A stretch of DNA of 64,000 nucleotides from assembly GCA_949297145.1 (NCBI GenBank), contig CASFQO010000002.1, positions 250,804-314,803 on the forward strand. Reading direction: 5' to 3'. Below the pieces are notes generated by a model, which worked only from the letters and a program-made list of their open reading frames with translations, did not search any database and was not told where the DNA came from. The translations under genes and the position numbers were made by a program. Positions within the stretch are counted from its first letter, which is position 1. Each line of letters begins with the position of its first letter. The stretch comes from an uncultured Alphaproteobacteria bacterium. Its GTDB lineage: Bacteria; Pseudomonadota; Alphaproteobacteria; RF32; CAG-239. This document shows positions 20,378 through 41,550 of the stretch, one piece after another.

Positions 20378-20380
20378 AAT

Positions 20381-22201: not shown

Positions 22202-25200
22202 TTACCACATATCAAGTTTTTTCATAAAGCGAGAACGTGCTTTAGAGTGATACCGATTGGCATTAGAGAGCAGATTTTTGGCATCATCATTATACTTATC
22301 CCGATGCACCAGCACCGTATTGGTCAAATGATCCAGCCAGATCGTATAAAAATAGAACAACAAATCTTCATCCTCGTTTTCCGGATAAAGCTTATGATCG
22401 AGCGCATACAATAGCCGGTCCACAAAGATTTCCTCTGCGCCGTCGGTTACCGCCTCTTCTGCCGTAAAAAAGCGCCTTGGAATATCGGGCAAATATTTTT
22501 CCCCTTTTCGATAAAATAACCGATAACCATCATCGGCTTTAACCACTTCATAGTTTTCCAAAATAACTTTTCTAAACCGCTCCATCTCCCGGTTATAAAC
22601 AGCCGTTAAGTAAGAATTTCGGTTAAACTGCGAAGTCTGAAACAGTTGACTGAGATAGTGAAAAGTTTCGTGAACAATGGTTTCCGCATTAGCTTTTTCA
22701 AACAAATAAATTGTTTTATCCGCCATATCATAAGCCCCTCTTGCCATTGCCATATTCGTGGAGCTAATGGCATCAGGAACACTGGGCACCGTTTCATCAT
22801 CATCCGGAAGAATACGCTTGCTTTCGGGCAAAAACGGATATTGCGTATCCTCGCTGTCGGCATAATCGGCATACCGCTGCAGTGAGGCATAATTAAGTTT
22901 ACTTTTATCAACCATTGGTTCTTTTTTGGCATCATCCCAATAAGCAAAGCTCCTCTGCCAATCAGAATAATTTTGCCTTCTGAGCATCGCTCTCATGTCA
23001 ATATTTCCCTGAGATGCTTCCCCCATCCAAGGAAACGGCGCCGTGATATAATAGCCGGAAGAAATTCTCGCCCGAATAATCATTTCCATATTCATCTTGT
23101 GCCTTAAATCCATTAACTCCGAATATGCGAAATCAGCCAACTTTCGTTCATCCGGATCGAGCAGATATTGCCCGTATTTTTCATCCATTTTTTTAAACAC
23201 GGCATCAAAATCAATATCCGAATATTTAACGTGTTGCACAGATTGCGAAGACTTTGCAGTATTAGAGGGAGCGTTTTTGCTCTGGCTTTTATAAATGTCT
23301 AATAACGAAATCGGCATATCTTTTTCAACCACATAGTTTTTAGCGCGTTCTTCGGGCATATATCGCGCAAAAAACAAATCCAACCCGTTGATGATTTTGG
23401 GCATAACTTCCGCTTTAGCTAAATAGATATGCCTATCCATAAAGTTTTTCATCTGCGTCTCAGATAAGCTCAAATCAAAATGCTCCTTCATCTGAATAGC
23501 AAACGCCGCCCCTTTCATCAGCAAATCTTTAAGGTTAGCATAATCAAACATCCTCGGATCGATTTCCAAAACATCACTCTCAAGATTTCTGTCATGATAA
23601 AAGTGATATCCGTCATCGTTATTCAGCTCATCAAAACGCACCGTCACATCTTTAAGCTCCGGATAATTTTTATAGAGTTCTTCATGATCTAACAAATCCC
23701 CCAGCTTCATTTCCTTTTTATCAAGCAAAAGCTGACGTTCTGCCCAATACCGCCGCAGACTTTCATCCCCATCCTCAAGATGCTCCTGAACAAAAGCATT
23801 TGCGGCTTGAATATCGCGTTTTTCAGCCAATCTGGCAAAATCAAGCTCTTTATGAAACCGATAAATACGATACACCTGATCCAACAAATCGGCCATAGCG
23901 GTTTTTTCCATATATGTCATATAGCGATATTGCGGTTGAGCAAAAAATCTATCCACCATAGAGAGCGGGATGTGCGCATCGCGATAAAGCTTTTGCATAT
24001 AATTCATATTGAAATAAGGCTTATGAAAATCCCCCTGTCCGGCGAGATACATCCGATAAAACTTTTCTCTGTCAACATCTTCGTAAAAATCCTCAACATC
24101 GGGCAACCCTAAGCGTTTAATAGCCGCTTCACGTTTACCGGCCTGACGTTGCAAATCTTCATCAAGCGATTGCACATAATTTTCAAAAGCACTTGTTTTA
24201 ACGCCGGCTTTATTCAAAAACTTATCCAAACGCTCAATATTTTTATCCACATCAACGGCACTGCGCCAAATATCGCCAATAAAATTCAAATAAGAATATT
24301 CTTCCATCGCTGAACGAATAATTTTCATCTGTTCGCTCGTATAAATATTTCCGAGCGGCGGCACATTGGTGTTTGCGGACTGACGACTTTTAAGCGGCGC
24401 TCTGGTTGTATGTTCTGCCTCTTTTGCAGAGATATTCCGCAGTTCGGCATTCCATACCAAACGACCGTCAGTATCTTCTTTAAGAAGAAGAGCTATATGC
24501 TTTTTCTGACCGTCAATTTCAATCGGCAAAACCGCCTGATAATATGCCTTCGCATCAGGTTCTTTTTGGCGTCCCAAATTCTTTGGATAAAAGACACCCT
24601 TTTCAAGCAACATCGGTAAATACGGAATCAACATCTTGTGCGTATCATCCAAATTTCCCTCAAGCATTAAAGAAGGAGTACTTATTTCTATTTCGCGCTG
24701 AAGCGACGGATTATAAACTTTCATATTCTGATAAGTTGAAAGCAAGTCATTCATAGCCTGGTTAAAGTCTTCATCAGCTCCTTTTTTATAATCAGAAGAA
24801 CGCACAACCGCCAAAACATCTTGTGCCGTTCCCGATTGCTGTCCGCTTAGCTGTTCTTGCGCATTGGGAACTTCTGCATTTTCATTGGCTGAAACCAAAT
24901 GCCTTGTATCATTTTCATCCAAAACATCAAATTTTTCTCTGTCCATCAACACTTGCTTTAAGGTCATATCGCGCAATAAAGGCATTTCACTTGTCGCGTG
25001 CTGTTTATTTCTTTCAGAAAGATACATATACCCGTCTAACAGCCCTTGCACACGGGTCGCAACCTGTCCTTTTTCGTCTTCAATACGCTTTTCATAATTA
25101 TGTTCCGGATCAAGAATGGAAACATCGCCGGTTCGCCCTTGCTTAAAAGAAAAATGACCATTGTAATTTTTATCCAAAAACTCAATAAAATCATCATACA

Positions 25201-27283
25201 TATAGTTATAAAGTTCTTGAGCAAGACTACCGCCGCTTATAAGTGAATCTTCAAGAGAGCGCAGTTGAATAATATCCTGCGCTTCAATTTCTTCCAACTT
25301 ACGCACATAAGACTTCCAATATTGCTTCGGGAGTTCATCTTCTTTCACATTAAAATCAAGTTTAAGTTTGGCTTTAGCATCGCTGATTTCAAAGCGCCAC
25401 TTTCCGTCTGTTCCGCGATACCATCCGGTTTTATTCCAAATAAATCGCGGCATATAATCTTCCGCCTCCAAACGATACGCCTCACCGAGCCGCTTAAAAT
25501 CGGCATACTTAGCGTTAATTCCGCCAAATTGAAACAAGACCGAAGTATTGGGAGCTAAATTTTTCTTAAAATTTTCATACGTTGTTTGTTTCACTTCCGG
25601 AACATTTTCCATCAAGATTTTTTGTGGCGAAAAAGTCTTATCCACATCATACAAAGCCATCGCCGTCGCCTGCATCATACCGGCGGTAATTTGCGCTTTG
25701 CTTTTATCATTGGTAGCTTTAAGCGTCCGTTTATACATCGTATCATATATTTTTCTAAACGCTTTAATGTCTGCTTTCCGCAAGCTTCTATCTTGCGGCT
25801 CTGCTTCAGTCGCAGCCTTTTCCATAGCTTTGAGGTTTTGCTCCAATGAGTAAGATAACACTTTTCCGAAAGCTTCAGGCTTTTGTTGCAAAAACTCTAA
25901 CGTGCTTTTTTTAAAGAGTTCAATTTCTTCATCACTAACCCCTTTAAGCAACATCCGCTGCCGCACATCGTCATATGTTTTTCGCGCATAATAGATACTT
26001 CCGTCAGCACCCATCAAAGCCGACGTACCGGCAATTGCCCCCAATGCACTTTCAATCAATCCTTCAAAGAGTTCTTGGGTATCGTCAATACCGACTTTTC
26101 TAACCAAATTTTCTGCCAACAATTGCTGCAAAACTTCTGAACCGGCTTCACGAAGCGGCGCCCCGACAACTTCTTTGGCAATCATTTGAGACGTCATCTT
26201 AGCACTTTCGGAAATCTGTTTTGGCAACGGATTAAACAGCTTATCAATCACAAAAGTCGTTCCGCCCGAAAGCAAAGCCGCGGTGTTGGCGACATCAACA
26301 TTTTCATCTTTTTGATAAGACTCATTAAACACCTGCGCCGCACCGCCGCCTGCAAATAACAAATAAGTCGGCCCCGCCCCGATATATTTGGATAAAGCCC
26401 CCATCGTTAAAACTTGCGCCGAGCCCTGCCCCAAAACATTCGCCAATTTCGCCCAACTGGGGTCTGTGTTATACGCCTCGACAGACGGAGCCAAAACCGA
26501 ACTCGTATCTATCTTATCGGCATAATTTTGAAATTTATGACCGATATTTTTTAAGATAGACCCGGCTTTCGGTGCAAACAACGCTGCGCCGGATGTCATC
26601 ATACCGATTGTGAGGTTTTTATTTTCTATATTCGTCCCAAAATAAGACAACACATTTCCGACCATTCGCAAATTATCGGAAGTAAACCCTCTGGCACCGG
26701 CTTTAAGAGCTTCTTTACCAAACGCCCCCGCATCAAACTCACCCATATTCCCTTCATTATAAGCCCAAGTATAGTCAGCAACATCCTCACCCAAGCTCTC
26801 GAGCGCATTCCAATACGTCTGCACATCGGTTGCCTGCTTCAACCAATCTCCGATAACCTGAAAACTGGTATGCGGTTTATCAGCATTCACACTATCGGCA
26901 GAAATAACCGGAAATTGCAAATTGTGCTCTTCTTCCACATAAGTGAACGGCAAATCGGTACTTTTCTCGCCAAAATCAAGCTGCAAATCTTGCGCCCGGG
27001 GAGCAGTAGCCGTTGAGGCTCTCAAAGAAACGCCGCTATTTTGAAACGCACTATCATCAGAAGTTTGAGTATTGAATGCTTCTGAAACATCATCGGCCCC
27101 ATCATCCGGTAACTTCAGTAACGTCTGCGGAACTTCTGGGTTAAAAATAGACTGCGTTTCCTCATCATTCGTAACATTTGGCAAAACCGTTTGCTGAAGC
27201 TCATCATCGGCATAAGGAATAGGCGTTTGCATCAACCCCTCACCCGACGCAACGCCCTTAAAATCATCATCAACTTTATTCAT
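22202..27283 (-). CDS. giant virion-associated (ejection/polyvalent-like) protein with HExxH motif, 1693 aa
   Basis: Intact 5.1 kb ORF and the last gene of the block. A zincin-type HETFH motif is encoded at 22658-22672. Size and position correspond to the largest internal virion protein of T7-like phages; this is a positional inference only. Confidence 0.6.
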   Translation of the reverse strand: MNKVDDDFKGVASGEGLMQTPIPYADDELQQTVLPNVTNDEETQSIFNPEVPQTLLKLPDDGADDVSEAFNTQTSDDSAFQNSGVSLRASTATAPRAQDLQLDFGEKSTDLPFTYVEEEHNLQFPVISADSVNADKPHTSFQVIGDWLKQATDVQTYWNALESLGEDVADYTWAYNEGNMGEFDAGAFGKEALKAGARGFTSDNLRMVGNVLSYFGTNIENKNLTIGMMTSGAALFAPKAGSILKNIGHKFQNYADKIDTSSVLAPSVEAYNTDPSWAKLANVLGQGSAQVLTMGALSKYIGAGPTYLLFAGGGAAQVFNESYQKDENVDVANTAALLSGGTTFVIDKLFNPLPKQISESAKMTSQMIAKEVVGAPLREAGSEVLQQLLAENLVRKVGIDDTQELFEGLIESALGAIAGTSALMGADGSIYYARKTYDDVRQRMLLKGVSDEEIELFKKSTLEFLQQKPEAFGKVLSYSLEQNLKAMEKAATEAEPQDRSLRKADIKAFRKIYDTMYKRTLKATNDKSKAQITAGMMQATAMALYDVDKTFSPQKILMENVPEVKQTTYENFKKNLAPNTSVLFQFGGINAKYADFKRLGEAYRLEAEDYMPRFIWNKTGWYRGTDGKWRFEISDAKAKLKLDFNVKEDELPKQYWKSYVRKLEEIEAQDIIQLRSLEDSLISGGSLAQELYNYMYDDFIEFLDKNYNGHFSFKQGRTGDVSILDPEHNYEKRIEDEKGQVATRVQGLLDGYMYLSERNKQHATSEMPLLRDMTLKQVLMDREKFDVLDENDTRHLVSANENAEVPNAQEQLSGQQSGTAQDVLAVVRSSDYKKGADEDFNQAMNDLLSTYQNMKVYNPSLQREIEISTPSLMLEGNLDDTHKMLIPYLPMLLEKGVFYPKNLGRQKEPDAKAYYQAVLPIEIDGQKKHIALLLKEDTDGRLVWNAELRNISAKEAEHTTRAPLKSRQSANTNVPPLGNIYTSEQMKIIRSAMEEYSYLNFIGDIWRSAVDVDKNIERLDKFLNKAGVKTSAFENYVQSLDEDLQRQAGKREAAIKRLGLPDVEDFYEDVDREKFYRMYLAGQGDFHKPYFNMNYMQKLYRDAHIPLSMVDRFFAQPQYRYMTYMEKTAMADLLDQVYRIYRFHKELDFARLAEKRDIQAANAFVQEHLEDGDESLRRYWAERQLLLDKKEMKLGDLLDHEELYKNYPELKDVTVRFDELNNDDGYHFYHDRNLESDVLEIDPRMFDYANLKDLLMKGAAFAIQMKEHFDLSLSETQMKNFMDRHIYLAKAEVMPKIINGLDLFFARYMPEERAKNYVVEKDMPISLLDIYKSQSKNAPSNTAKSSQSVQHVKYSDIDFDAVFKKMDEKYGQYLLDPDERKLADFAYSELMDLRHKMNMEMIIRARISSGYYITAPFPWMGEASQGNIDMRAMLRRQNYSDWQRSFAYWDDAKKEPMVDKSKLNYASLQRYADYADSEDTQYPFLPESKRILPDDDETVPSVPDAISSTNMAMARGAYDMADKTIYLFEKANAETIVHETFHYLSQLFQTSQFNRNSYLTAVYNREMERFRKVILENYEVVKADDGYRLFYRKGEKYLPDIPRRFFTAEEAVTDGAEEIFVDRLLYALDHKLYPENEDEDLLFYFYTIWLDHLTNTVLVHRDKYNDDAKNLLSNANRYHSKARSRFMKKLDMW

Positions 27284-27311
27284 ATCAAATCCTACCTTAA
27301 AACAAAAACCA

Positions 27312-28973
27312 TTAACCCCTCATCACCGCCAATCGTCCCTGAAAATAGAATTTTTCACCGGGAGCCAAATCAGCCTCTGCCAATTCTTCATAAGAATCAA
27401 ATTGCGGATAATTAAGTTCTTTGCGCTGCTCCTCACGAGCAATTTGACGCATCGTTTCAATTTTATCTTCGGCAAACGGCGCCAAAGACGCATATTTTTT
27501 CCAAATACGCGCAACATCCGTTCCCGCATAAGCCGATTGAAGCGCTCTTTTTAATTCGCCAAACGTTACCGCATCTTTTTGAGCATTGGTTTTAAGCATC
27601 ATATCTTTGATAACGCCGTCCAAAGCAAGCCTGCTGATTTTCTTTTCCTGAAGCGGCGTCAACTGCCCGCCGTTTTGTTGCAAAGAAGACGCCAAAGCCG
27701 TTTTTGTGGCATAGTAATTTTGATAAATATCCAACGCAAATTTAGCCTTGTCTTCCATCAACTGCTGCGCTATAAAATTCCCCCTCGTAGATGCTGCAGA
27801 TAAATCAGCCGCAAAGGCTTTATCTACCAGCGCATCAACTTCTTTATCAAACATCATTTCAGCCGTCGGCTTATCGCTTTGCGCTGCCAAGAGTTGATTT
27901 TGCAAAGCCGAAACTTCTTCTAAGCCAAGTTTGTTTTGGTGATAAGCATTGATAAGATAATTAGACGCATCACTGATTTCTTGAGCAGAAAGTTGCGTTC
28001 CTTCGTTCATCTTGCGCACCAAGCGATAAACCTCGCTCAAAGGGGTTAAACTTCTCTCTTCGTCATCTCCCCAAATATCAACCGTTTGCAGAGATTTTTC
28101 GCCGTTTGCATTTGATACCGTATTTTTTTGCCGCAAAACAAAATATTGTGCCGGAGAAATATCGCCATGCTCTTTTTGTTGCCACAAACTTTGCGCCTCG
28201 CTCAAACGATTGAGCAAATCCAATCTTTCACGTTTAGCCTGATCTTGCTGTTGTGCCGTTGCGATTAAAGATTTTGTCTCTTGAATTTGAGCTTTAAGCT
28301 GTTTCTTTTCCGCCTCATCATCAACATACATATCAACCGCACGAGAGGCCGCTTCGGGATTATTTAGCGCCGCATTAAGAATACCGGTTTTAAGATACCC
28401 TTGCCGATAATTCTTTTTATCCGGTTCCGTTAAAAACGGCGTCTTTTGAATTTCATCCGTCCCCATCTCTAAAAGTTTGCTGACCTTTGCTGCATCACCG
28501 TTATCGGCCAATAAATTTTGATTATCCGCCAACATAGAGTTAAGACTTTGCTTACCGAAATCAATTTGCTTCTCCGCCACAATTTTTTTCGTATCGTCAT
28601 GATGCGCCGCCAAGATATTATCGCCGTGTTTTTTCCAAAACGCCCTTGCCTTTTCATCACCATCAAATTGCGCCGCCAAAACCTTATCGCCATCTTTGAC
28701 CATGTTCTGCAACTCATCAGGCGTTGCGGCGTTTTGCAAAGCCTCTCGCGTTGCCTTAAGCGAAACATCTGCCTGCATAGCCAAACGTTCATCTTCCGTC
28801 TTTTGCATTTTATCAGCCAATGTGTTTGCCGCCTCAAGCAGAGCCGAATCAACATAAAGCGAAGAATCCGAGGCCAAAAATCGTCTTGCCGGAGACGTAA
28901 TTTGCGCCGCCACCGGTCTTTTAAGCATAGCGCCGCCTAATCTCATAAAAGGAACTTTTTGTCTGTTTGCCAT
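27312..28973 (-). CDS. phage internal/ejection-like protein, 553 aa
   Basis: Start at ATG 28973 with an AGGAGAG RBS; the longer ORF-track start overlaps the upstream gene. A/Q/K/E-rich and helical. Function inferred from position only. Confidence 0.5.
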   Translation of the reverse strand: MANRQKVPFMRLGGAMLKRPVAAQITSPARRFLASDSSLYVDSALLEAANTLADKMQKTEDERLAMQADVSLKATREALQNAATPDELQNMVKDGDKVLAAQFDGDEKARAFWKKHGDNILAAHHDDTKKIVAEKQIDFGKQSLNSMLADNQNLLADNGDAAKVSKLLEMGTDEIQKTPFLTEPDKKNYRQGYLKTGILNAALNNPEAASRAVDMYVDDEAEKKQLKAQIQETKSLIATAQQQDQAKRERLDLLNRLSEAQSLWQQKEHGDISPAQYFVLRQKNTVSNANGEKSLQTVDIWGDDEERSLTPLSEVYRLVRKMNEGTQLSAQEISDASNYLINAYHQNKLGLEEVSALQNQLLAAQSDKPTAEMMFDKEVDALVDKAFAADLSAASTRGNFIAQQLMEDKAKFALDIYQNYYATKTALASSLQQNGGQLTPLQEKKISRLALDGVIKDMMLKTNAQKDAVTFGELKRALQSAYAGTDVARIWKKYASLAPFAEDKIETMRQIAREEQRKELNYPQFDSYEELAEADLAPGEKFYFQGRLAVMRG

Positions 28974-28989
28974 CTTATCTCTCCTAAAC

Positions 28990-29451
28990 TTAAAACAAAG
29001 AAGAAAGCGAAGATGAAAGCCCGCTGAGCAAATTGCCGCTAAAACGATTTTGCCCCTCTTTGCGATATTGTTTAGCGTTGGCCTCTTCAACCATCGCCTG
29101 ATACAAATAGTTTTCAGCCTCGCTTTCAACACGATATCTTTCGTTTAAGATATTCTGTTCAAGCGCCGCAGAAGTCGTCGCCAGTGCGGTTGTCGTTGTC
29201 GGACTTTCGCCCATCCCCGCTTCACCGGCAGCAGCCGAAGCCGAAGCAACGGTTGCTCTTTTTTGCGAGCGCATAGCATCTTCGTTTTGAGCCCCGCTCA
29301 AGCGGATATTCGCTGCATTTTGCCTATAAACTTGTGCATTTTGTAACGCCAGTTGCGCCTGTTTTTCATATTGATTTTGTTCTTCTTTTCCTTTTAAGAA
29401 ACCGGAAGCAAAATCAATTCCGGCTTTAATTAAGAGTGCCTGAGCCACCAT
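28990..29451 (-). CDS. phage small internal-protein-like protein, 153 aa
   Basis: Start at ATG 29451 with an AAAGGAG RBS. A/Q/S-rich. Function inferred from position only. Confidence 0.45.
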   Translation of the reverse strand: MVAQALLIKAGIDFASGFLKGKEEQNQYEKQAQLALQNAQVYRQNAANIRLSGAQNEDAMRSQKRATVASASAAAGEAGMGESPTTTTALATTSAALEQNILNERYRVESEAENYLYQAMVEEANAKQYRKEGQNRFSGNLLSGLSSSLSSLF

Positions 29452-29938
29452 AATAAAAACTCCTTTCATAAAGTTGATAATTTTTCCCATCAAAAAAATT
29501 TTCCATCACACGCACCGGAACAAACCCGAGCATCAACGCCAAGCGCTTCGCCTGCCAAAAATCATCCCTCACCGTCATCACCACCTGTTTGATTTTTAAG
29601 CGAGCCGCTTCGTGGGCGATTTCTTTTTCTAAAAACCGAACCAGCGTTAAAAGTTTTCCCCCGATATTCTGCCCAATGAGCGCATAACACTGCGCCGTTT
29701 TTTCGTTGTTATCAAAAAACACCTCAAACCCGCATACGGCCAACACTTCTCCATCGTCGTTAATTAACGTATAAGCCCGAACCCGCTCAAATCCGTCCGC
29801 AAAAGTTTGCGCCTCAGCCGCTTGTTGTGCTTGTAACAGAATTTTCTTTGCGTCGCCTGATTGATAATCTCTAATCATCTTCTCACCCATAAAAAAAGAG
29901 GCAATATCTGCCCCTTTTAAGACCTCAAAACCAAGCAC
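29426..29938 (-). CDS. GNAT-like acetyltransferase-fold protein, 170 aa
   Basis: GNAT-like C-terminal pattern KIKQVVMTVRDDFWQAKRLALMLGFVPV...GKNYQLYER. GTG start at 29938 overlaps the previous stop by 1 nt. Internal ATGs lie at 29890 and 29878. Confidence 0.45.
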   Translation of the reverse strand: MLGFEVLKGADIASFFMGEKMIRDYQSGDAKKILLQAQQAAEAQTFADGFERVRAYTLINDDGEVLAVCGFEVFFDNNEKTAQCYALIGQNIGGKLLTLVRFLEKEIAHEAARLKIKQVVMTVRDDFWQAKRLALMLGFVPVRVMENFFDGKNYQLYERSFYYGGSGTLN

Positions 29939-33908: not shown

Positions 33909-34283
33909 TTAGCGTGCCAAATAACCTAAGGTCACGCGAATATTGCCTGAATTAGAAGTACTTGAAGCAATCGCCGCCGTCACAAAATCTTTAACATCGG
34001 CAGGCAATGTGGCTGTTGCCATCAATTCCCCGTCAACAAAAGATTTTGTCGCTTCAATAGACATGGTGAGCAATTCGGCAAAAGCGCCCGTTTCAGTATC
34101 CCCATGCTTAACCGTGATGGTAATCGTTCCGTTAACGGCAACATCACCAACCGCAAACGCATTAACACACAAAGCCCCTTGTGTAGAACCTGCAGCCACC
34201 ACATTTCCCTCGGCAATAGAGGCCTGGTTAAGCGCCCCTTTTGCCAAATCCTCGTCATAAACTTTCAAAATATTATTTAACAT
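33909..34283 (-). CDS. small virion protein next to the capsid gene (possible decoration/cement protein), 124 aa
   Basis: ATG at 34283 with a GGGAGA RBS. Beta-rich, G/A/V/T-rich sequence. Function inferred from position. Confidence 0.4.
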   Translation of the reverse strand: MLNNILKVYDEDLAKGALNQASIAEGNVVAAGSTQGALCVNAFAVGDVAVNGTITITVKHGDTETGAFAELLTMSIEATKSFVDGELMATATLPADVKDFVTAAIASSTSNSGNIRVTLGYLAR

Positions 34284-34307
34284 CAAAAAAATCTCCCAAA
34301 AAAGAGG

Positions 34308-35207
34308 TTACGCCAATTCAACAGCCTTTTCAGAACCGTTTTCAAAGTTATAAGAAGTGATAAAGCGAATACCGTTCCAAGCGGCAAAACTACGGTTAAC
34401 ATCCATATCGCCGGTCATGGTTTGCAACACATTGCCTTTGTACTTATTAAGCATAGAAAGTACTTTCGGATGGCAAAAGATATAAGTAGATCCCGGCGTT
34501 GCCTTTGCATCCACCAACATATTGTCAATTTGTTCTGCTGTCGGAATATTATCGGCAGAAATATTAACAATCGCGGAAACCGCATCAGGGTTTGCAAGCT
34601 GCATACCGATATAGCCTTTAATGCGCACGCCATAACCAAGTAAGCCGTTAGCGTTTTTATAGAGTTGACCACCGTTAATCGGCGTTGAATCCAAAAGGCC
34701 GAAACGATTGATATTTTTAGCGGAATAAAGTCCTGTCACTTCACCCGGAATAAAACGAACCGCAACCATAGAGTAGCATTTATTATCCGCTCCCGCAGAA
34801 ACGGCTTTACCGTTTTCAACCGCATACGGGATAAAGTTATCATAAATAATTTTCTTTTCAGCAGTTTCACCGGCGTGCTTCAAAAGGATAGGAACTTTCT
34901 TAGCAAAATATTCGGAAACACCGATAACGGCAGCCTTATCTTCCGGCACGAAGATTTCCCCGCCCAAGATAGACAAGTCAATTTTTTTCAAATTAGAATC
35001 AACTTCCATTTCAGGCAGCGGTTGGTTAATATCAATAAAGCCCGCGCCGGAAATTTTTGCCACTTCTTCATAAGCGTTCCAAAGCCCGTGAGAAGAAGCC
35101 TCAAAACGCATATTATCCAAAATCGGAGAATCATTAGTTAAAAAATCAACATAATGCTCTTGCTTTTTAGACAAAGCAACCGCAATTTCTTTTAATGTAC
35201 CAGACAT
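34308..35207 (-). CDS. major capsid protein (putative)
   Basis: A 299-aa ORF directly after the scaffold-like gene. The codon usage looks highly expressed, and size and position are typical. Confidence 0.6.
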   Translation of the reverse strand: MSGTLKEIAVALSKKQEHYVDFLTNDSPILDNMRFEASSHGLWNAYEEVAKISGAGFIDINQPLPEMEVDSNLKKIDLSILGGEIFVPEDKAAVIGVSEYFAKKVPILLKHAGETAEKKIIYDNFIPYAVENGKAVSAGADNKCYSMVAVRFIPGEVTGLYSAKNINRFGLLDSTPINGGQLYKNANGLLGYGVRIKGYIGMQLANPDAVSAIVNISADNIPTAEQIDNMLVDAKATPGSTYIFCHPKVLSMLNKYKGNVLQTMTGDMDVNRSFAAWNGIRFITSYNFENGSEKAVELA

Positions 35208-35234
35208 TTAAAAAATCCTTTCAACAAACAAAAA

Positions 35235-35960
35235 TTAGTAATCATTAAACATTTCTCTGAAATATTCAACCGCATCCCAATCATCGCCTTTACGGCGTCT
35301 GCCGAAGCTAATCGGATTATCTTCCGAAATCGCCTCACCCAAACGACAAAAGACCTCCATCATACGCTTGGTACCGATTGCCTTTTCAATTTCAGCAACA
35401 GTATTTTCATCATCACAAAACATTCTGACGCCACGCTTCATCAATTCCCAATTACGTTGCGCGCGTGTCCCCCAAGTGCGTTTCATTTCTTCCATTTCGC
35501 GTAAAGAATTTTCCGCCCAAGAGGTTTCGTTTTTTTCATTCAGTTCATCACGATGTTTCACATACCAATCATAGATAGCCTGAGCAGATTGCGGCAGAAT
35601 ATGATTTTCAAGACAAACTTGTTTAAAAGCTTCGCCGTCTTCTTTATCTTCATCGGCAAAGACCACATCAAAACAAGCGCAGTCTTGCGGCATTCCCAAA
35701 CGGGAATAAAGTTTGTCCAAAGCTTTTTTATCGCCGTCCTTCGGCAAAGAAATTTTAGAAGAGAAAGCTCTTTCCAGTTCACGATAAGATTTGAGCAAAT
35801 CGGCAGGAGTTTTAAAACCCTTCTTGTCAATATAATCCAAATCTTCCGCGGACATTTCTCCCCAACCGGATTGTGCACGCAAAAAGTCTTTATCAAATTC
35901 AGACTTTAAGAAGTTATCGGAGGTAGTCTGCCCCTCCGGCTTTTTAGAATTCATCATCAT
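35235..35960 (-). CDS. scaffolding protein (putative), 241 aa
   Basis: Acidic, helical protein encoded between the portal and capsid genes. Confidence 0.5.
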   Translation of the reverse strand: MMMNSKKPEGQTTSDNFLKSEFDKDFLRAQSGWGEMSAEDLDYIDKKGFKTPADLLKSYRELERAFSSKISLPKDGDKKALDKLYSRLGMPQDCACFDVVFADEDKEDGEAFKQVCLENHILPQSAQAIYDWYVKHRDELNEKNETSWAENSLREMEEMKRTWGTRAQRNWELMKRGVRMFCDDENTVAEIEKAIGTKRMMEVFCRLGEAISEDNPISFGRRRKGDDWDAVEYFREMFNDY

Positions 35961-35985
35961 AAAATCCCCACAAAAAAGTTAGCAT

Positions 35986-36018
35986 CAAAAAAGGCAGCCT
36001 CAAAAACGAGCACTGCCT
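35986..36018 (-). terminator. second terminator-like hairpin upstream of the scaffold gene
   Basis: On the minus strand: AGGCAG...CUGCCU stem followed by U6, 25 nt before the scaffold ATG. Confidence 0.45.
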
Positions 36019-36053
36019 AAAAAAATCGTCAGATACGGAGCGCAAAAACGCCC

Positions 36054-36081
36054 ACAAAAAAAGGACGTCAACCACGTCCCC
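36054..36081 (-). terminator. promoter-proximal intrinsic terminator
   Basis: On the minus strand: GGGGACGU / ACGUCCUU 8-bp stem (2 G.U, which are mismatches on the plus strand) followed by a U-run. It starts about 22 nt downstream of the predicted start site. Confidence 0.65.
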
Positions 36082-36109
36082 AAACAAACACTATTTCCAT
36101 TATGCAGTC

Positions 36110-36138
36110 ATCATAACCGACCCCCGACAGGATGTCAA
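36110..36138 (-). promoter_or_regulatory. internal phage-block promoter (copy 2 of the conserved promoter core)
   Basis: On the minus strand: TTGACA, 17 nt spacer, TATGAT. The core AAACCTATTGACATCCTGTCGGGGG is nearly identical to 41529-41557. Confidence 0.6.
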
Positions 36139-36175
36139 TAGGTTTGGAAACGTTTTTGAAAATATTTTTTTTACC

Positions 36176-36517
36176 TTAAACATCTAAGTCACGTTTCACG
36201 TCATCGCCATCGCGTTGCAATTTGGTAAACAAAGCAAACACTTCCGTTTCGGAAAGTGCCAGATATTTAACCAACAAATCAAACATCCGCCTTTTGCCTA
36301 AAAGGAAAGCCGCCGCATTCGGATCAAACCGATTTTGCGCATCATAAAAATAAGGCACCCCGCCGGCACCGAGTTCACCACGAGCCCCCGCTTCGTCTCG
36401 CAAAAATTCAATCACAATTTCCGCTTCGGGCTTGAGTTTACCGTTTGGCGTTAAAAAGAGTTTATGAAACGCTTTCACCAGTTCATGTTCACGCTTAATT
36501 TTCTTAAAAAACATCAC
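36176..36517 (-). CDS. phage hypothetical protein, 113 aa
   Basis: ORF between the portal and scaffold genes. No motif recognised. Confidence 0.55.
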   Translation of the reverse strand: MMFFKKIKREHELVKAFHKLFLTPNGKLKPEAEIVIEFLRDEAGARGELGAGGVPYFYDAQNRFDPNAAAFLLGKRRMFDLLVKYLALSETEVFALFTKLQRDGDDVKRDLDV

Positions 36518-36526
36518 TTTTCTCCT

Positions 36527-38230
36527 TTATGCCGAAGTCTTGTTAAGCAAAGCCGAAAGAGAAGCGTTTTGCGCTCCTGCTTGCGCACCGTTTTGTTGCT
36601 GTTGCAGAAGTGCTTGTTGTTGAGCCTGCTGTTGCATTAAGAGTTCCTCAACTTCATCAGCGGTACGCACCACGTCCGGACCAACACCGTAATAATCGGC
36701 AATTTTGCGGAGTGCCGCTTCGGTATCAAACACATTTAAGATATTCGGGTTAGCCTGTGCCAAAGACGTAGCCGCCTCAATCGTTTTATAAAGCCCGACA
36801 ATCGCACCCGATTGCTGCATATGCACAGCCGGCCCTTCAAACTGAATAGCGATAGAGCCGTCATACATCAACTCATCCGGAACGTCGTCTAAAACACCGT
36901 AAGAAGCCAAAATATCCAATTCACGCTCAATATTACCGGCAAGCCATTCTGCGGAAATACGTTCACACATCGGCGCCAACAACATAGATTTTTCCATCTC
37001 GCGTTTTTCCACTTCGGTAGCAGTCATCTGCTTTGTTTGGGTGAGTGATTGGAACAAAGGCACCAAGAATGCTCTTTCAATCGCCGCCCGCACTTCGCGT
37101 TGCATTTCAACCGTAATCGAGAGATTATTACCATATTGCATAGAAACCGCCGCCGGCTTGCCCTGATTATCCAAACCGCCGCGAATAACCGCCCCCGCCG
37201 AACCGAGCTTATTGGTATCAATCAACCCCATATTGGTAAGGATGGGCGGATTAGCTTGGAGCTGACCGGTACGCAGGATAGTTTTGCCCATTTCATTGGC
37301 GGTTAATAAGTCATAAAACGCCTGCAGCGCCGGACTATCGCCGTAAGAACTTCCGGCAATACCCAAAAATCTCGGTGCCATATACGGACAAGTACGATAC
37401 CCGCCGACATGAATAATACGTTTAGCCGCCATGTCTATATGCACACTGGCATATTTCATGCCGTTAAAATCAGCAGCCTCAAGCGCATAGTCATCACGTT
37501 CAAACACAGCGTGTAAAAACTTAAACATACGTTCAGGCGTATTTTCCGCCGCTTGCAAAATATCGCCCCGCAATTCATCACCAAATTTTTTAGCGGCTTC
37601 TCCGGCGGTTAATTCATATTCACGAAAGACCGCAGCGATTTTTCCGCTGTCATCACGTTTGATATAAGCTTCCTTAACCGGAATAGTGCGATAAACAATC
37701 CCCTGCCCAACGTTATCTTCAACCATCCATAACGCATGTCCGTAAATACCGAGTTGATTAAACAACAAATCACTTTCGGAAGCGAAATTGGAATAAGCCG
37801 AATAGCGCACCCGAAAGAGTAAGTCAGTTGCTTTATCCAAAAACTTTTTAACTTTGGCATTGTCATCTAAATTCGGATCAACCGGTTTAAGTCTGTGCCA
37901 TTGTGATGTCGTCGGCACAATCACCGATTTCATGCTGGAGCAAAAACAAGCCAAAGCGTTCCGCCCCGTGGTGTCAAACACATTTTGGCGCACTCTCCCG
38001 CGGTTATCGGTCGTAAAGAGTTCCGATTCAACCGAACACATTTCCGCCGCCTTGTCCCACATCGGCTCCCATTTAGCTCTTTCGGCTTTCATCGCATCCA
38101 AACGTTTCAAAATATTTTCCGCGTTAAACGCCGGTTTTTTGCGCACCAACCGCGGTGCAAAAGATTGCCCATCTTTAGCAAAAATATTCTCCGGCTGAAA
38201 TTCCGAAGAACGATCATCCAAATGTTCCAT
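36527..38230 (-). CDS. portal (head-tail connector) protein, 567 aa
   Basis: Start at ATG 38230 with a GGGAGG RBS. Size and position after the terminase fit a portal, and the Q-rich C-terminal tail is typical of podovirus connectors. Confidence 0.65.
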   Translation of the reverse strand: MEHLDDRSSEFQPENIFAKDGQSFAPRLVRKKPAFNAENILKRLDAMKAERAKWEPMWDKAAEMCSVESELFTTDNRGRVRQNVFDTTGRNALACFCSSMKSVIVPTTSQWHRLKPVDPNLDDNAKVKKFLDKATDLLFRVRYSAYSNFASESDLLFNQLGIYGHALWMVEDNVGQGIVYRTIPVKEAYIKRDDSGKIAAVFREYELTAGEAAKKFGDELRGDILQAAENTPERMFKFLHAVFERDDYALEAADFNGMKYASVHIDMAAKRIIHVGGYRTCPYMAPRFLGIAGSSYGDSPALQAFYDLLTANEMGKTILRTGQLQANPPILTNMGLIDTNKLGSAGAVIRGGLDNQGKPAAVSMQYGNNLSITVEMQREVRAAIERAFLVPLFQSLTQTKQMTATEVEKREMEKSMLLAPMCERISAEWLAGNIERELDILASYGVLDDVPDELMYDGSIAIQFEGPAVHMQQSGAIVGLYKTIEAATSLAQANPNILNVFDTEAALRKIADYYGVGPDVVRTADEVEELLMQQQAQQQALLQQQQNGAQAGAQNASLSALLNKTSA

Positions 38231-38337
38231 ACGAACCTCCCAAAATAAAGAAACGCGGAAAAGGAAGTTCCACGTTTCAGCCACAAAAAAACCGGCTTGA
38301 GAAGCAAACCGGCTCATTAAAAAGAAAGAATTAAAAC

Positions 38338-38972: not shown

Positions 38973-39058
38973 AGATTTCTCCACATAAAACAAACCATAA
39001 AACACAAATTTTATATCATACCCCACTCATAAATGCAACGTTTTTTTATCGCGCTTAT

Positions 39059-39253
39059 TTACGCACCGAGCGTTGTTTTACCGCCGCCGGAACCATAAGA
39101 ATTATCGTGAGATAAAAGTTGTGATACGGCGCCCATTTTCTTTTTGCGCTTATTTTCCAATTCATGCACTTCAGCAGAATTATCCACAACTTCCAACTCC
39201 ACTTCTTGCGGTTGCACCTGAACAACTTTCGGTTTAGAAAAAACAGAACTCAT
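39059..39253 (-). CDS. phage hypothetical protein, 64 aa
   Basis: Short ORF fitting tightly between terL and the membrane-protein genes. Confidence 0.4.
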   Translation of the reverse strand: MSSVFSKPKVVQVQPQEVELEVVDNSAEVHELENKRKKKMGAVSQLLSHDNSYGSGGGKTTLGA

Positions 39254-39278
39254 CTCTGTACTCCTTTATAAAATTAAG

Positions 39279-40598
39279 TTAAAGATAAACGGAATCATCC
39301 ACAAAATCCCCACCTGAGGGATGAGGAATTTTCAAAAGATATTCCGCATTTTGAATAGCAAACGTGAGCGCCAACGCATCAGCAACATCCGTCGAACGCC
39401 CCAATCTTTTTTTAATCTCGGCTTTAGGTTCCAACTGCAACCGCCCAAGCGCATCAAACATTTTAAGCGGCGCCGTCAAATCTTCCACCAAGCCGGAAAA
39501 TTCGGGCAAAGAAACCGGCAAAGGCGACGTCAGCCATTGAGCCACCCTCGCCCACATTTCCGCCCGACGGTTAACAAAGCGTTCAGCGTTATCAGCCCTC
39601 TCGCCAAAATTAACCGCGACAACATATTCAGCCAAGCCGTTTGCCGCCAACACGTCATACACACCGGCACCAAGCCCACCCACATCAATGCACACCCGCG
39701 CCGGATTATCTTCGGCAATAACAGCACCGATAAGATGCGCCACCTGCACCACATCAAGCTTTTGAAACGTTTTGAATTTTAAGACTTGTCTTCCTCGCCG
39801 ATAGCAAATAGCAGTTTTGTCATCGCCGAAACGCGCCACATCAACCCCGATAATGAGCGGCGCCGTATCGTCATTGATTTTAATATCGTTTTCAAGCGCC
39901 CGATACACTTCTTCGCGCCCGATTAAATGATTATCCGCCGTCAAGCGTGGTTCCCCCTCCCAAACATGCAGATATTCGCCATAATTTTCGTTTTTCATTT
40001 TAAGCGCCAATCGCTTCATGTTATCCGGACAATACGGATTGTCATAATAGTTGACCTTACGAACAATCGTGTCATTGTCGGGATGAAGAGCAAGAGCCTT
40101 CCAAACAGGATCGTTTTCCTCTTCACGGTTGAGAGAAAGCCAAATTTCCGCATTGGGCTTACGAATGGTCGGGTCTAAGATTTGCCATGCGCGTTCTGAT
40201 ATTTTCTGCGCTTCTTCACACCAACAAATATCCACCCCTTCAAGCGATTTAATATTTTGCGCATTGTGTTCCAAAATTCCCTTAAAGATAAATTTAGATT
40301 TATTTTTGAGGTTGACGATTTTATCTTCATAGAGGCGGTATTCGTTGAGCTGATAAAAAGCAATTCTGTCGGCAATCAGCTTATAAACGGAATCTTTAAT
40401 AGAGTTTTGCACCTCACGCACGCAGGCAATTAAGAGCTTGCGACTGGTCGCAAGCGTCAGGAGCGCATCTGCAAACGCATAAGACTTACCGCCGGCTCTT
40501 CCGCCATAAAACATCTTATAGCGTGCTTTAACCGTCAAGAGCTCCCGAAACGCCCGCGGCAGTTGCACTTTCATTTCTTTTTGTATCACCTTAGCCAT
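39279..40598 (-). CDS. terminase large subunit (PBSX/XtmB-like)
   Basis: Walker A-like FYGGRAGGKSYA and a nuclease-domain pattern IIGVDVARFGDDKTAI. GAGGAT RBS. Confidence 0.85.
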   Translation of the reverse strand: MAKVIQKEMKVQLPRAFRELLTVKARYKMFYGGRAGGKSYAFADALLTLATSRKLLIACVREVQNSIKDSVYKLIADRIAFYQLNEYRLYEDKIVNLKNKSKFIFKGILEHNAQNIKSLEGVDICWCEEAQKISERAWQILDPTIRKPNAEIWLSLNREEENDPVWKALALHPDNDTIVRKVNYYDNPYCPDNMKRLALKMKNENYGEYLHVWEGEPRLTADNHLIGREEVYRALENDIKINDDTAPLIIGVDVARFGDDKTAICYRRGRQVLKFKTFQKLDVVQVAHLIGAVIAEDNPARVCIDVGGLGAGVYDVLAANGLAEYVVAVNFGERADNAERFVNRRAEMWARVAQWLTSPLPVSLPEFSGLVEDLTAPLKMFDALGRLQLEPKAEIKKRLGRSTDVADALALTFAIQNAEYLLKIPHPSGGDFVDDSVYL

Positions 40599-40622
40599 TA
40601 TCCTCTGCCCATCATCAAATAC

Positions 40623-41024
40623 TCACACAAACTTCACCACAATTTCTTTCAAATTCTGCCCATCGTCATTATCGTCATCGCCATTTTGCAACGTCGTCCA
40701 GATAGGTTCCGGACAAGCCTTTTGCGCCAACCACTTTTCGGTTTCAATCAAAAGTTTGGCTGTTGAGTTATCAATTTCACCTTTTTTAAGTTCCGCCACA
40801 ATTTTCCGAATATTATCGGTACAGCTATCGGCATAATCAGCCAGCGCCAACTTATACCCTTGCGAAAAAGCGGGATTAGCGGCCGTTGCCTCATAAAATT
40901 GCTTCGTCCCGATACCGTTTTTTTGACAAGCGGCAAAAAGAGAAGCGCCTTTGCGCAACGCCTCAAACACTGCCGTCAAAATTTCTTCATCTGTTTTATT
41001 AATACTTTTTTTCCGAACACCCAT
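40623..41024 (-). CDS. terminase small subunit (putative), 133 aa
   Basis: HTH-like N-terminal region. It lies immediately upstream of terL and is the first gene of the block. Confidence 0.5.
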   Translation of the reverse strand: MGVRKKSINKTDEEILTAVFEALRKGASLFAACQKNGIGTKQFYEATAANPAFSQGYKLALADYADSCTDNIRKIVAELKKGEIDNSTAKLLIETEKWLAQKACPEPIWTTLQNGDDDNDDGQNLKEIVVKFV

Positions 41025-41397
41025 AATAACTCATACCCATATATACGGAACACCCATTGCGCCATAAGAAGCACACGGCGCTTATGTCCGCTCATAAGCG
41101 CCCCGCCCATACATTTTTGCCTAAAGCAAAAATCCCATAATTGACTATAGAAAGAGTGCCTATCCGTTTTTTTAGGAGAATTGCCATTTTCTTATAGAAG
41201 TAGATAAGGTAATAAATTCCTGGCATAAACCAAATCAAAGTTTATTTTTAATTGAATAAAATCTTCATCTTCTCCGTCTCAAAAAAACAGAGCAACCGAA
41301 GAGACATAAAAAGCCGTCATTTTTTTAACACAAAAAAGCCACCGATAAAAACCTGAAAGCTTTTCACGCTCAAAACGAGCCTTTTTTGATTTCGCAC

Positions 41398-41428
41398 TAA
41401 AAAACGCCGCCGATAAAAACCGACAGCG
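41398..41428 (-). terminator. leader terminator downstream of the block promoter
   Basis: On the minus strand: CGCUGUCGG / UCGGCGGCG 9-bp stem. Its 3 G.U pairs would be C.A mismatches on the plus strand. It is followed by U6. A degenerate second copy lies at 41332-41362. Confidence 0.6.
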
Positions 41429-41521
41429 CTCTTTAATGACATTCAATGAAAATTTAAACTTTAAAAATAATTTATATCAAGATTCAACTGTTTTGATATA
41501 CACTCTTCCACGATACCCAAA

Positions 41522-41550
41522 CTTATAACACCCCCCGACAGAGATGTCAA
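41522..41550 (-). promoter_or_regulatory. promoter of the phage-like block (copy 1 of the conserved promoter core)
   Basis: On the minus strand: TTGACA (41550-41545), 17 nt spacer, TATAAG (41527-41522). There is no minus-strand gene upstream. The leader to the terS ATG is about 490 nt. Confidence 0.6.

Follow-up and report, generated by a model that had tools for sequence, protein, structure and literature searches.

We analyzed a 64,000-nucleotide stretch of DNA, hereafter the window, from an uncultured bacterium of the Alphaproteobacteria (RF32; CAG-239; GenBank assembly GCA_949297145.1, contig CASFQO010000002.1, positions 250,804 to 314,803). On its minus strand, from position 41553 to 20603, lies a block of ~21 kb that carries the packaging and morphogenesis genes of a short-tailed phage. 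The block is probably a domesticated (exapted) podovirus module, a viriform of the gene transfer agent (GTA) kind that descends from a BPP-1/T7-supergroup phage of gut Alphaproteobacteria. We consider it very likely that the host maintains a functional particle system of some kind here, whether GTA-like or killer-type; DNA transfer as the function of the particle is a more tentative proposal. The structural and packaging genes stand without functions for autonomous replication, lysogeny, or excision. They occupy a fixed locus with vertical inheritance, and purifying selection acts on intact open reading frames (ORFs), the exception being two genes for internal proteins (one of 553 amino acids [aa] and one giant) that some lineages lack. 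A first-pass annotation, made from the letters of the window, had asked whether the block was a cryptic remnant or a domesticated particle system. Our comparison favors domestication over simple decay and corrects that annotation on the left boundary, the single promoter, and the statement on lysis.

The comparative scan took one genome per species and yielded 30 loci (labelled L001, etc.), all of them in metagenome-assembled genomes (MAGs) of uncultured gut Alphaproteobacteria (mouse, ruminant, and primate). Gene order was read from tblastn and ORF maps. The same block was present in 26 of the 30 species-level loci, at 54 to 99% identity of the nozzle protein, and metagenomes contained over 170 homologues of the nozzle, many of which were on contigs 100 to 550 kb long. 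Capsid relatives formed two tiers. Those of the chromosomal tier were 69 to 99% identical to the capsid of the window and 296 to 304 aa long (mostly exactly 299 aa), on contigs of up to 547 kb. Those of the phage tier were 53 to 60% identical and 302 to 316 aa long, on contigs of 31 to 47 kb with the same gene order. In a neighbor-joining tree of capsids, the chromosomal tier was a single clade nested among the phage tier, with no phage-sized contigs inside it.

Virion genes of the block

The genes are tightly packed from 41024 down to 22202, and about 17 ORFs, including one of 5.1 kb, are intact. The list of genes, their order, and the virion roles proposed in the first-pass annotation were borne out by matches in Pfam, PHROG, and the Protein Data Bank (PDB) and by AlphaFold2 (AF2) models searched with Foldseek. 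A T7-supergroup/BPP-1-like virion set is present (PF12236-type portal, adaptor, nozzle, and HK97 capsid). The genes are listed below in window coordinates, with E values after the family names.

40623..41024, minus strand: small terminase subunit (TerS), Sf6 type, 133 aa (PF20901 Sf6_terminase, 2.3e-11; phrog_1482, 1.3e-14)
39279..40598, minus strand: large terminase subunit (TerL), 439 aa, Terminase_3, P22/Sf6-like (PF04466, 1.2e-32; phrog_3717, 1.8e-52)
39059..39253, minus strand: 64-aa protein with the C terminus ...GGGKTTLGA, a small conserved ORF after TerL
38652-39026 (probable start about 38972, ~106 aa), minus strand: tm124, a protein with three transmembrane (TM) segments, paralogue of tm104
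38338-38652, minus strand: tm104, 104 aa, three TM segments, paralogue of tm124
36527..38233, minus strand: portal, T7 type (PF12236, 4.2e-93; phrog_332, 1.6e-111)
36176..36517, minus strand: p113, a 113-aa Bbp19-like protein (PF25181, 7e-4, a weak match under the curated cutoff)
35235..35960, minus strand: protein in the scaffold position, 241 aa (phrog_3742, 3.3e-44, a family without annotated function)
34308..35207, minus strand: major capsid protein, 299 aa, HK97 fold, BPP-1/Carin1/epsilon15-like (AF2 and Foldseek)
33909..34286, minus strand: p125, a 125-aa capsid-adjacent protein, its position kept in all lineages and in the phage tier
33200..33796, minus strand: adaptor (tail tubular protein A), 198 aa from M14 (phrog_394, 3.4e-40; phrog_9239, 6e-8)
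32069..33136, minus strand: p355, 355 aa, a nozzle-type N-terminal arm followed by two copies of PF25641 Head_fiber_dimeric (3.1e-27)
29938..32076, minus strand: nozzle (tail tubular protein B), 712 aa (phrog_376, 2.7e-149; PDB 8CK1 "Tail Nozzle," 3e-58)
29426..29938, minus strand: GNAT-like protein in the gp13 position (phrog_4177, 7.6e-9; acetyltransferase family phrog_1249, 0.0015; internal virion protein family phrog_308, 0.004)
28990..29451, minus strand: gp14-like internal virion protein, 153 aa (phrog_418, 1.5e-12)
27312..28973, minus strand: 553-aa protein in the gp15 position, 31 to 68% identical in most lineages
22202..27283, minus strand: giant 1693-aa polyvalent protein in the gp16 position (PF18838 LPD23, 4.8e-17; PF18798 LPD3, 4.4e-9)
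20603..22117, minus strand: p504, a 504-aa single-pass membrane protein with a low-complexity spacer, the element's conserved last gene

Ratios of nonsynonymous to synonymous substitution (dN/dS) were computed by the Nei-Gojobori method (NG86) against three sister species, at dS values of 0.2 to 1.8. For block genes other than tm124/tm104 and p504, the ratios were about 0.02 to 0.22. The lowest values, 0.02 to 0.05, belonged to TerL (0.02 to 0.04), portal (0.03 to 0.05), capsid (0.02 to 0.04), and, approximately, p113 (0 to 0.03); the scaffold, tail, and internal proteins had values of about 0.04 to 0.22. TerS lay at 0.07 to 0.11. No locus had an internal stop in the homologous segments, and the few stops seen lay upstream of true starts or were natural ends. 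Ratios well below 1, which the first-pass annotation had named as a check on domestication, were thus found.

A Terminase_3 protein together with an Sf6-type TerS marks the headful family of packaging systems. The portal is read from M29 of a 596-aa ORF, as upstream stops in L002 and L004 indicate. Its neighbor p113 was present in all lineages, and the 241-aa protein (dN/dS 0.04 to 0.08) is the presumed scaffold, judged by its place ahead of the capsid gene. The AF2 model of the capsid protein (pLDDT 80) matched BPP-1 (3J4U, E = 8e-15) best in Foldseek, followed by 8CJZ (3e-12) and 3J40 (7e-10). At the sequence level, the capsid had a weak N-terminal match to the major-head-protein family phrog_212 (9e-5) and no match to a Pfam family or a PDB sequence; a tblastn search against 50,697 phage records gave no match. 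For p125, which had no family match, analogy with BPP-1 makes a decoration or cement protein a candidate role.

The small ORFs between TerL and portal are less readily placed. The 64-aa protein had no family match; small homologous ORFs also lie behind TerL in L008 and L016, and a 64/65-aa ORF is found in the same place in L117 and in phage contig L118. The tm124/tm104 proteins are possibly holin-like. Similar pairs of small TM proteins with a C-terminal LWCG-like motif occur at varied positions of the element (L008/L012, L010, L016, L005/L116, and L114), and proteins of this type were not found in 17 phage-tier loci. Against the sister species, tm124 and tm104 had a dS of 0.05 to 0.15, compared with 0.3 to 0.5 for their neighbors, and a relatively high dN/dS (0.13 to 0.63). 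These values suggest recent recombination between species or constraint at the nucleotide level.

The tail nozzle appears in an unusual, divided form. The 712-aa protein aligns to positions 62 to 709 of phrog_376 and to residues 102 to 565 of 8CK1, and its gene overlaps the stop of p355 by 8 nucleotides (nt). Residues 1 to 69 of p355 correspond to positions 2 to 70 of phrog_376, and residues 9 to 54 correspond to residues 16 to 61 of the 8CK1 nozzle. The canonical N-terminal ~60 residues of the nozzle therefore reside at the start of p355 and not on the 712-aa protein. Further along, residues 127 to 189 of p355 match the crAss001 head fiber gp29. Its AF2 model has disordered residues 1 to 60, two beta-sandwich (head-fiber Ig-like) domains, and a clade-specific, beta-rich C-terminal domain. 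That last domain had no clear PDB match, and Foldseek with the whole model returned only multidomain noise of low TM score. Phage-tier homologues of p355 share only its N-terminal half. We regard p355 as a candidate fiber-like or receptor-binding appendage anchored at the adaptor-nozzle junction; families of tail fibers or tailspikes were not found in the block.

The last virion genes follow the T7 order. In phage KL4, a GNAT gene likewise follows the tail protein. The lengths of 153 and 553 aa given by the first-pass annotation agree with the true starts indicated by homologues. The 553-aa protein (dN/dS 0.12 to 0.15) had no family match. The giant protein (dN/dS 0.10 to 0.22), with homologues of 1350 to 1913 aa in most lineages, carries an HExxH motif close to its C terminus and no recognized transglycosylase. 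Judged solely by position and size, the 553-aa and 1693-aa proteins would be the equivalents of gp15 and gp16. The giant protein's place is taken in L021 (14804-20254), just past tRNA-Glu, by a protein of 1816 aa that is unrelated to it and has an M48 peptidase domain at its N terminus.

Locus, selection, and phage relatives

Across lineages, the common gene order is terS, terL, portal, p113, scaffold, capsid, p125, adaptor, p355, nozzle, GNAT, gp14, 553 aa, giant, and a p504-like gene. The p504 family was not found in the 17 phage-tier loci scanned. Its members share an N-terminal motif with the TM segment, a central motif of ~55 aa, and the C terminus, and evolve faster than most of the block (dN/dS 0.30 to 0.45). 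The p504-like gene always follows the giant protein (or gp14 where the giant is missing) and always directly precedes tRNA-Glu. The first-pass annotation had described both flanks as chromosomal. Housekeeping genes do lie on both sides, but the 504-aa membrane protein that it had assigned to the left flank is the last gene of the element. Two neighbors delimit the block:

41690..43519, plus strand: mem609, a 609-aa polytopic, GtrII-like membrane protein, divergent from the first promoter of the block (P1) and its constant upstream neighbor
20381..20455, minus strand: tRNA-Glu(UUC), which anchors the 3' end of the element in the chromosome

In the window and also in 15 related loci (L001, L002, L004, L008, L009, L010, L012, L016, L019, L021, L022, L023, L112, L116, and L117), a tRNA-Glu(UUC) on the same strand comes after the last gene; none of the phage-tier loci scanned had it. 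At the other end, mem609 adjoins P1 in the window, L001, L002, L004, L009, L014, L021, L117, and the rearranged loci L011, L015, L024, and L025, that is, in every lineage whose sequence reaches that far. Beyond it, the arrangement lolA-p375-mem609 (p375 being a 375-aa gene) is shared by the window, L011, L015, L024, and L025, and in both the window and L014, rpsF-rpsR-rplI is located past the opposite end of the block. The insertion site and synteny that the first-pass annotation had proposed to compare thus agree, by tRNA-Glu in the 15 loci and by mem609/lolA or the rpsF operon where the sequence reaches. The L117 orthologue of mem609 matches PF14264 Glucos_trans_II, and mem609 of the window has no Pfam match. 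The GtrII family is typical of serotype-converting prophages, and mem609 may be a relic of the ancestral phage, perhaps its sole surviving nonstructural gene.

Pfam scans of the unknown ORFs of the window revealed no integrase, recombinase, replication, or repressor family, and a direct-repeat search found no att-like repeat bracketing the block. The absence of integrase, repressor, and replication genes and of an att duplication, reported in the first-pass annotation, therefore stands: the window has no integrase with att repeats, no immunity repressor, and no replication module of the kind expected of a temperate prophage. Directly 3' of tRNA-Glu, at 19898-20324 (and 20371-20396), are two tandem 221-nt units that are 93% identical, each of which includes a copy of the last 19 to 26 nt of tRNA-Glu and has a terminator-like hairpin at its end. 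One unit folds on the minus strand at -62.7 kcal/mol (z -4.2), with no Rfam or ARAGORN call. The units are probably stacked att-site remnants of islands at tRNA-Glu or a novel small RNA. These partial copies are on the far side of the tRNA, and the block is not bracketed by them.

The composition of the block is fully ameliorated. Block and housekeeping genes of the window had a GC content of 0.437 versus 0.437 and a GC content at third codon positions (GC3) of 0.424 versus 0.431, and their codon-usage distances were indistinguishable.

Several lineages have rearranged or interrupted the block. The portal gene has been relocated between p125 and the adaptor in L008 and L012. In L011, L015, L024, and L025, p355-nozzle and two unknown genes stand at the front, straight after the conserved promoter. 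In L114 and L112, 3.8 to ~10 kb of cellular-type genes lie between portal and p113, among them a GH77 4-alpha-glucanotransferase (MalQ), an ankyrin-repeat protein, and a VgrG3-C-like protein. Every structural ORF is intact in these lineages. Rearrangement without loss fits genes owned by the host rather than a phage genome that has to be packaged as one unit. Compared with L002, L004, and L009, the packaging and head genes of the window had 90 to 95% nucleotide identity, and the tail and internal genes had 65 to 83%; the giant and p504 proteins, at 40 to 56% amino acid identity, form the end of this steep gradient within the element.

One contig of the phage tier, L118 (45 kb), begins at TerS and shows no difference in structural gene order, p355-like and giant proteins included; L111, L119, L120, and L122 are further examples. 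An exact-match scan lengthened one viral contig by just 116 nt. This tier has another TerS (PF16677 GP3_package, 201 aa). Missing from it are the tRNA anchor and the GtrII-like gene, as well as the p504 family, SAA-type genes, and the small TM proteins. One phage-tier relative carries, downstream of the giant gene, a 341-aa ORF (no Pfam match; a putative fiber by position), a Phage_tail_APC chaperone gene, and a Bro-N gene; the fiber-like ORF and the Phage_tail_APC gene are not in the window. The nearest cultured phages are 25 to 30% identical (Burkholderia KL4/BcepC6B, Pelagibacter HTVC podophages, Ralstonia, and Liberibacter). Small early genes on the opposite strand of "sister" loci with 40 to 47% identity were discarded as antisense ORFs in giant genes running off contig ends (L122), and a PHROG scan of them was empty. 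In L034 (IMGVR_UViG_3300045988_183436, 1-17897), a sister-type podovirus module is joined to tail genes of the myovirus type (neck terminator, DUF3383 sheath, E217 gp32 tube, and baseplate hub). Its portal is 82%, its capsid 53%, and its nozzle 46% identical to those of the window. This locus, probably a chimeric assembly or a tandem prophage, was set aside.

Taken together, the comparison indicates that the element was fixed once, in the ancestor of the clade, between the GtrII-like gene and tRNA-Glu(UUC), and has been inherited vertically under purifying selection since. Lysogeny and replication functions would have been lost, or never retained, after fixation. The Sf6-type TerS, the paired small membrane proteins, p504, the SAA/GH108 enzymes, and the promoter-terminator cassettes are specific to the clade.

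The wider window has a G+C content of about 40%, and housekeeping genes flank the block on both sides (several identities were read from translations):

Left of the block: dnaG, rpoD, rpsF-rpsR-rplI, ybaK, hsp20, and tRNA-Glu
Right of the block: lolA, tRNA-Gly, prfB, an Amidase_2 gene, uvrA, gltX, and lpxA

The tRNAs, the Amidase_2 protein, and a metallo-beta-lactamase-fold protein were confirmed by tools. Searches of Rfam, at gathering thresholds for the entire window and with permissive E values for the P1 leader and the tRNA repeats, returned only three tRNAs. Two large paralogues at 48347-49789 and 51953-53728 consist of repeats of ~40 aa ("...NLPxxLDVSxCxxVxLxxCDL...FRxGAxV..."); they had no Pfam matches and look like repeat effectors of host-associated bacteria.

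Promoter-terminator cassettes and candidate lysis genes

The first-pass annotation had described the block as led by one promoter. A second, paralogous cassette at 36141-35984 shows otherwise:

41392..41553, minus strand: P1 cassette, with -35 TTGACA (41550-41545), -10 TATAAG (41527-41522), and -10-like TATCGT plus GG (41515-41508)
About 41431-41396: terminator T1 of the P1 cassette, after a conserved leader
About 41360-41331, about 41293-41268, and 41108-41080: hairpins between T1 and terS
35984..36141, minus strand: P2 cassette, with TTGACA (36138-36133), TATGAT (36115-36110), and -10-like CATAAT plus GG
36081-36061 and about 36017-35986, minus strand: P2 terminators (-10.9 and -14.1 kcal/mol)

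The P1 core, TTGAC[AT]-N17-TA..A-N6-TATC[GA]TGG, was kept across deep divergence, in L001, L002, L004, L009, L011, L014, L021, and L025, even where p355 replaces terS as the first gene. In order, it consists of TATTGAC[A/T], a 17-nt spacer with TGTC/TGTGAC, the -10 TATAAG/TATAAA, 6 bases, and the -10-like hexamer plus GG (TATCGTGG). Among sister species, the region upstream of terS was better conserved than terS itself. Terminator T1 folds at -18.5 kcal/mol (z -4.2), and its counterparts in other lineages fold at -15 to -25 kcal/mol. Between the P1 core and the first gene, strong intrinsic terminators were always present, one to three in number (overall -11 to -25 kcal/mol, z -3.5 to -7.2). 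The terminator stems, folded one hairpin at a time, were unrelated in sequence between lineages. P2 is paralogous to P1 (CTATTGACATC(T)CTGTCGG...). It lies ahead of the scaffold gene in the genus of the window and was seen in L001-L004, L009, L020, L112, and L114; loci in which p113 and the scaffold gene adjoin directly, e.g., those of the phage tier, do not have it. The promoter calls rest on conservation across species, because a generic promoter scan gave no excess over shuffled sequences (29 found, 37 expected). A putative CtrA box upstream of P1 (TTAA-N7-TTAT in the window) was rejected, as the box was not kept in L014.

A promoter followed by a promoter-proximal -10-like element and a terminator is the layout of PR'-qut-tR' in phage lambda. 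By this analogy, the presence of two or more promoter-terminator cassettes suggests antitermination control; no gene for Q, GafZ, or another antiterminator was found in the window.

No endolysin family was detected in the block, in agreement with the first-pass annotation, which had overlooked a candidate cassette (18891-19791) just beyond tRNA-Glu:

19261-19791, minus strand: p176, a 176-aa prok-SAA (Lipocone) enzyme (PF00277 SAA, 9.2e-13)
18891 to about 19250 (ORF to 19364), minus strand: p157, after p176, a multi-TM protein with a Cys-rich C-terminal tail (...DYNEHRCRSD)

The sNxxGR active-site motif, which was defined for the Lipocone superfamily (PMC12419801), reads intact in p176 as ANARGR. 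Members of the superfamily are predicted to cleave the head groups of lipids or isoprenoid carriers, like the lipid-II toxin TelC, and prok-SAA is predicted to be such a head-group-cleaving toxin (PMC12419801). The N-terminal 47 aa of p176 are homologous to residues 94 to 137 of the proteins encoded behind portal in L025 and L011, and the L025 protein ends in a GH108 lysozyme (PF05838; phrog_315 endolysin, 6.7e-17). An SAA/DUF6973-like gene is paired with a Cys-rich TM gene at varied places within the element in L008/L012, L005/L116, and L020; in L019, such a pair stands behind tRNA-Glu. SAA-type genes were not found in phage-tier loci. The p176/p157 cassette may thus serve lysis, cell-wall penetration, or as an effector (toxin)-immunity pair. 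For lysis, the two three-TM proteins, p504, and this cassette are the candidates. An Amidase_2 protein (51139-51897) with a T7-lysozyme/AmpD fold and a C-terminal extension of ~100 aa was rejected as the missing endolysin: it lies 10 kb off, among housekeeping genes, and has no link to the element.

If the block acts as a GTA, its cycle could run as follows. A regulator encoded elsewhere would allow RNA polymerase from P1 and P2 to pass the intrinsic terminators by Q- or GafZ-style antitermination. Portal, scaffold, and HK97 capsid protein would assemble a procapsid, and the Sf6/P22-type terminase would pack DNA into it by the headful. The substrate would be chromosomal DNA, because the element cannot excise or replicate. 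The adaptor, the split nozzle with p355, and the internal proteins (gp14-like, 553 aa, and 1693 aa) would complete a short-tailed particle. A producer subpopulation would lyse, and the particle would inject DNA and internal proteins into related cells.

Competing explanations and comparison with known systems

Several points weigh against a GTA-like, vertically inherited element. The Mantel correlation between element-gene and mem609 distances (r 0.82 to 0.94; 4 to 27 of 5040 permutations as high) supports vertical inheritance and is not decisive, because mem609 may be prophage derived and is no clean host marker. TerS aligns to positions 2 to 96 of the 106 in the Sf6 TerS profile, including the DNA-binding part, which makes sequence-specific packaging possible. 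The genomes of BPP-1, Carin1, and epsilon15 are ~40 kb. With a capsid like that of such phages, the head may hold the whole 21-kb locus, and the criterion of a head too small for its own genes, used for GTAs, may not apply. No canonical tail fiber, endolysin, or regulator was recognized, and the roles of p355, p176/p157, and the TM proteins are ones that we infer. The 553-aa protein is gone from the locus in L021, L022, and L117; the giant protein is gone in L019, L022, and L117 and replaced in L021. These lineages may be degenerating, or they may keep the genes elsewhere. The first-pass annotation had named frameshifted or variable copies in relatives as a sign of decay: there are no disrupted ORFs, and the copies do vary insofar as the 553-aa or giant genes are absent in three or four lineages. 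Finally, the particle, packaging, and transfer roles are read from genes in MAGs, and since all hosts are uncultured MAGs, some residual binning or assembly error may be present.

The best-surviving alternative, which we judge unlikely, keeps a host-maintained particle and changes its task. In this explanation, the block encodes a killer or effector-delivery particle (PBSX- or headed-tailocin-like) whose toxins are the giant protein and the prok-SAA/GH108 enzymes, with the Cys-rich membrane proteins as immunity proteins. The nucleotide identity between sisters, 90 to 95% for head and packaging genes and 65 to 83% for tail and injected proteins, resembles the gradient left by an arms race, but genuine GTAs also show fast tail evolution. 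The giant protein, with its LPD23 and LPD3 domains, is swapped or lost between lineages, and the enzymes combine a shared N-terminal module with differing C-terminal enzymes (prok-SAA in p176, GH108 in L025). Behind p176-type genes comes a gene for a small membrane protein whose Cys-rich tail is periplasmic, which is the arrangement of polymorphic toxin-immunity pairs, and a toxin role has been predicted for prok-SAA (PMC12419801). However, the p176 cassette could equally be a lysis module, and packaging of p176 in the particle is conjecture. TerS, TerL, and portal are also among the most constrained genes (dN/dS 0.02 to 0.11), which implies that DNA packaging matters, although PBSX packages DNA too.

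A cryptic prophage remnant that slowly decays or hitchhikes beside tRNA-Glu is very improbable. It would account for the lack of lysogeny, replication, and recognized lysis genes, for the lineages without both large internal proteins, and for the tandem partial copies of the tRNA-Glu 3' end, which mark tRNA-Glu as an integration hotspot. At divergences that saturate dS, however, neutral decay would have wrecked the ORFs, whereas ~17 of them are intact in every lineage sampled, with dN/dS values of 0.02 to 0.22. The rearrangements and host-gene insertions have cost no structural ORFs, and the regulatory cassettes are conserved. We reject simple decay because synteny is fixed, the ORFs are intact, dN/dS is low, composition is ameliorated, and the clade is monophyletic and nested. 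Least credible of all is the idea that the block is the structural portion of an element that still moves, either a temperate phage whose other modules lie elsewhere or a capsid-forming satellite dependent on a helper phage for replication, excision, and lysis. It is suggested by the 31- to 47-kb phage-sized contigs with the same structural order in gut metagenomes and by the L034 portal, whose 82% identity implies some exchange between the two tiers. Against it, all lineages keep the block in one position, flanked by the same host genes, no integrase or att sites were found, cellular genes lie within the block in some lineages, codon usage is ameliorated, and the chromosomal tier is monophyletic without phage-sized contigs.

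A domesticated podovirus module, conserved here over family-level divergence in gut Alphaproteobacteria, would provide a tangible candidate for gene flow by capsids in a gut lineage that has small genomes and is poorly known. Lineages with a rearranged cluster, inserted host genes, or lost large internal proteins offer natural "experiments." The locus also links prok-SAA (Lipocone) enzymes to a phage-like particle system.

Among cellular particle systems, PBSX of Bacillus subtilis, a defective phage with a fixed place in the chromosome whose particles contain host DNA and affect neighboring cells, is a useful model for a killer particle. Unlike the present element, it has a contractile tail, a Gram-positive host, known regulators and lysis genes, and an unrelated sequence. 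Complete podophages such as BPP-1, Carin1 (8CJZ/8CK1), BcepC6B/KL4, and the HTVC phages share with the element the capsid fold variant, the nozzle, the Bbp19-like protein, and the order TerS-TerL-portal-scaffold-capsid-adaptor-nozzle-GNAT-internal proteins. They differ in having complete genomes of roughly 35 to 45 kb, whereas the element lacks nonstructural modules and has its own TerS type and membrane proteins.

The RcGTA-type (type I) and BaGTA-type (type II) elements are phage-derived clusters under vertical inheritance and purifying selection, with scattered or rearranged accessory genes (PMC9662315). The present element, known from its genes, likewise is a head, tail, and packaging cluster without replication or lysogeny genes in an alphaproteobacterial clade. 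It differs in being of the short-tailed BPP-1/T7-supergroup type, with adaptor, nozzle, and ejection proteins and no genes for a tail tube or tape measure; its capsid matches that of RcGTA (6TB9) only at the generic HK97 level (rank 47, 8% identity). In the layout of its control DNA, the element resembles lambda Q and CcGTA systems, with a strong sigma-70-type promoter, a -10-like element at about +1 to +6, and terminators before the morphogenesis genes. The likeness to the lambda qut/pause region is one of sequence pattern only, and here the cassette is duplicated within the cluster. CcGTA of Caulobacter is under GafYZ antitermination, according to the account of Tran and Le (2024) given in PMC12946183. 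If the same holds here, antitermination-style control may be a common solution.

GTAs are, to our knowledge, known from a handful of lineages, and almost all characterized ones are long-tailed, with one podovirus-like candidate. The premise of the first-pass annotation that the characterized GTAs known to it are long-tailed is outdated by that candidate, FpGTA of Faecalibacterium, a GTA-like element of the gut microbiome described as podovirus-like (Borodovich et al. 2026; PMC12946183). FpGTA consists of two parts, of 10.5 and 5.5 kb, forms heads of ~40 nm with 8.4 to 8.9 kb of DNA, encodes a holin and an endolysin, and is supported by particle, proteome, and packaged-DNA data (PMC12946183). 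Both elements hold TerS, TerL, portal, scaffold, and capsid together, in FpGTA within one operon with further genes elsewhere. Compared by description, FpGTA belongs to the Firmicutes, while the present element is alphaproteobacterial, spans ~21 kb, has T7-like internal proteins, and is known from genes. The literature searched held no published description of the element; given the 2026 report of FpGTA, it is not the first podovirus-like GTA candidate. It could, on a tentative view, be a third independently domesticated GTA lineage of the Alphaproteobacteria and the first derived from a T7/BPP-1 podovirus, switched by antitermination and moving headful-sized pieces of chromosomal DNA. A second, unrelated podovirus-derived element would show that particle domestication is recurrent and not tied to one virion architecture.

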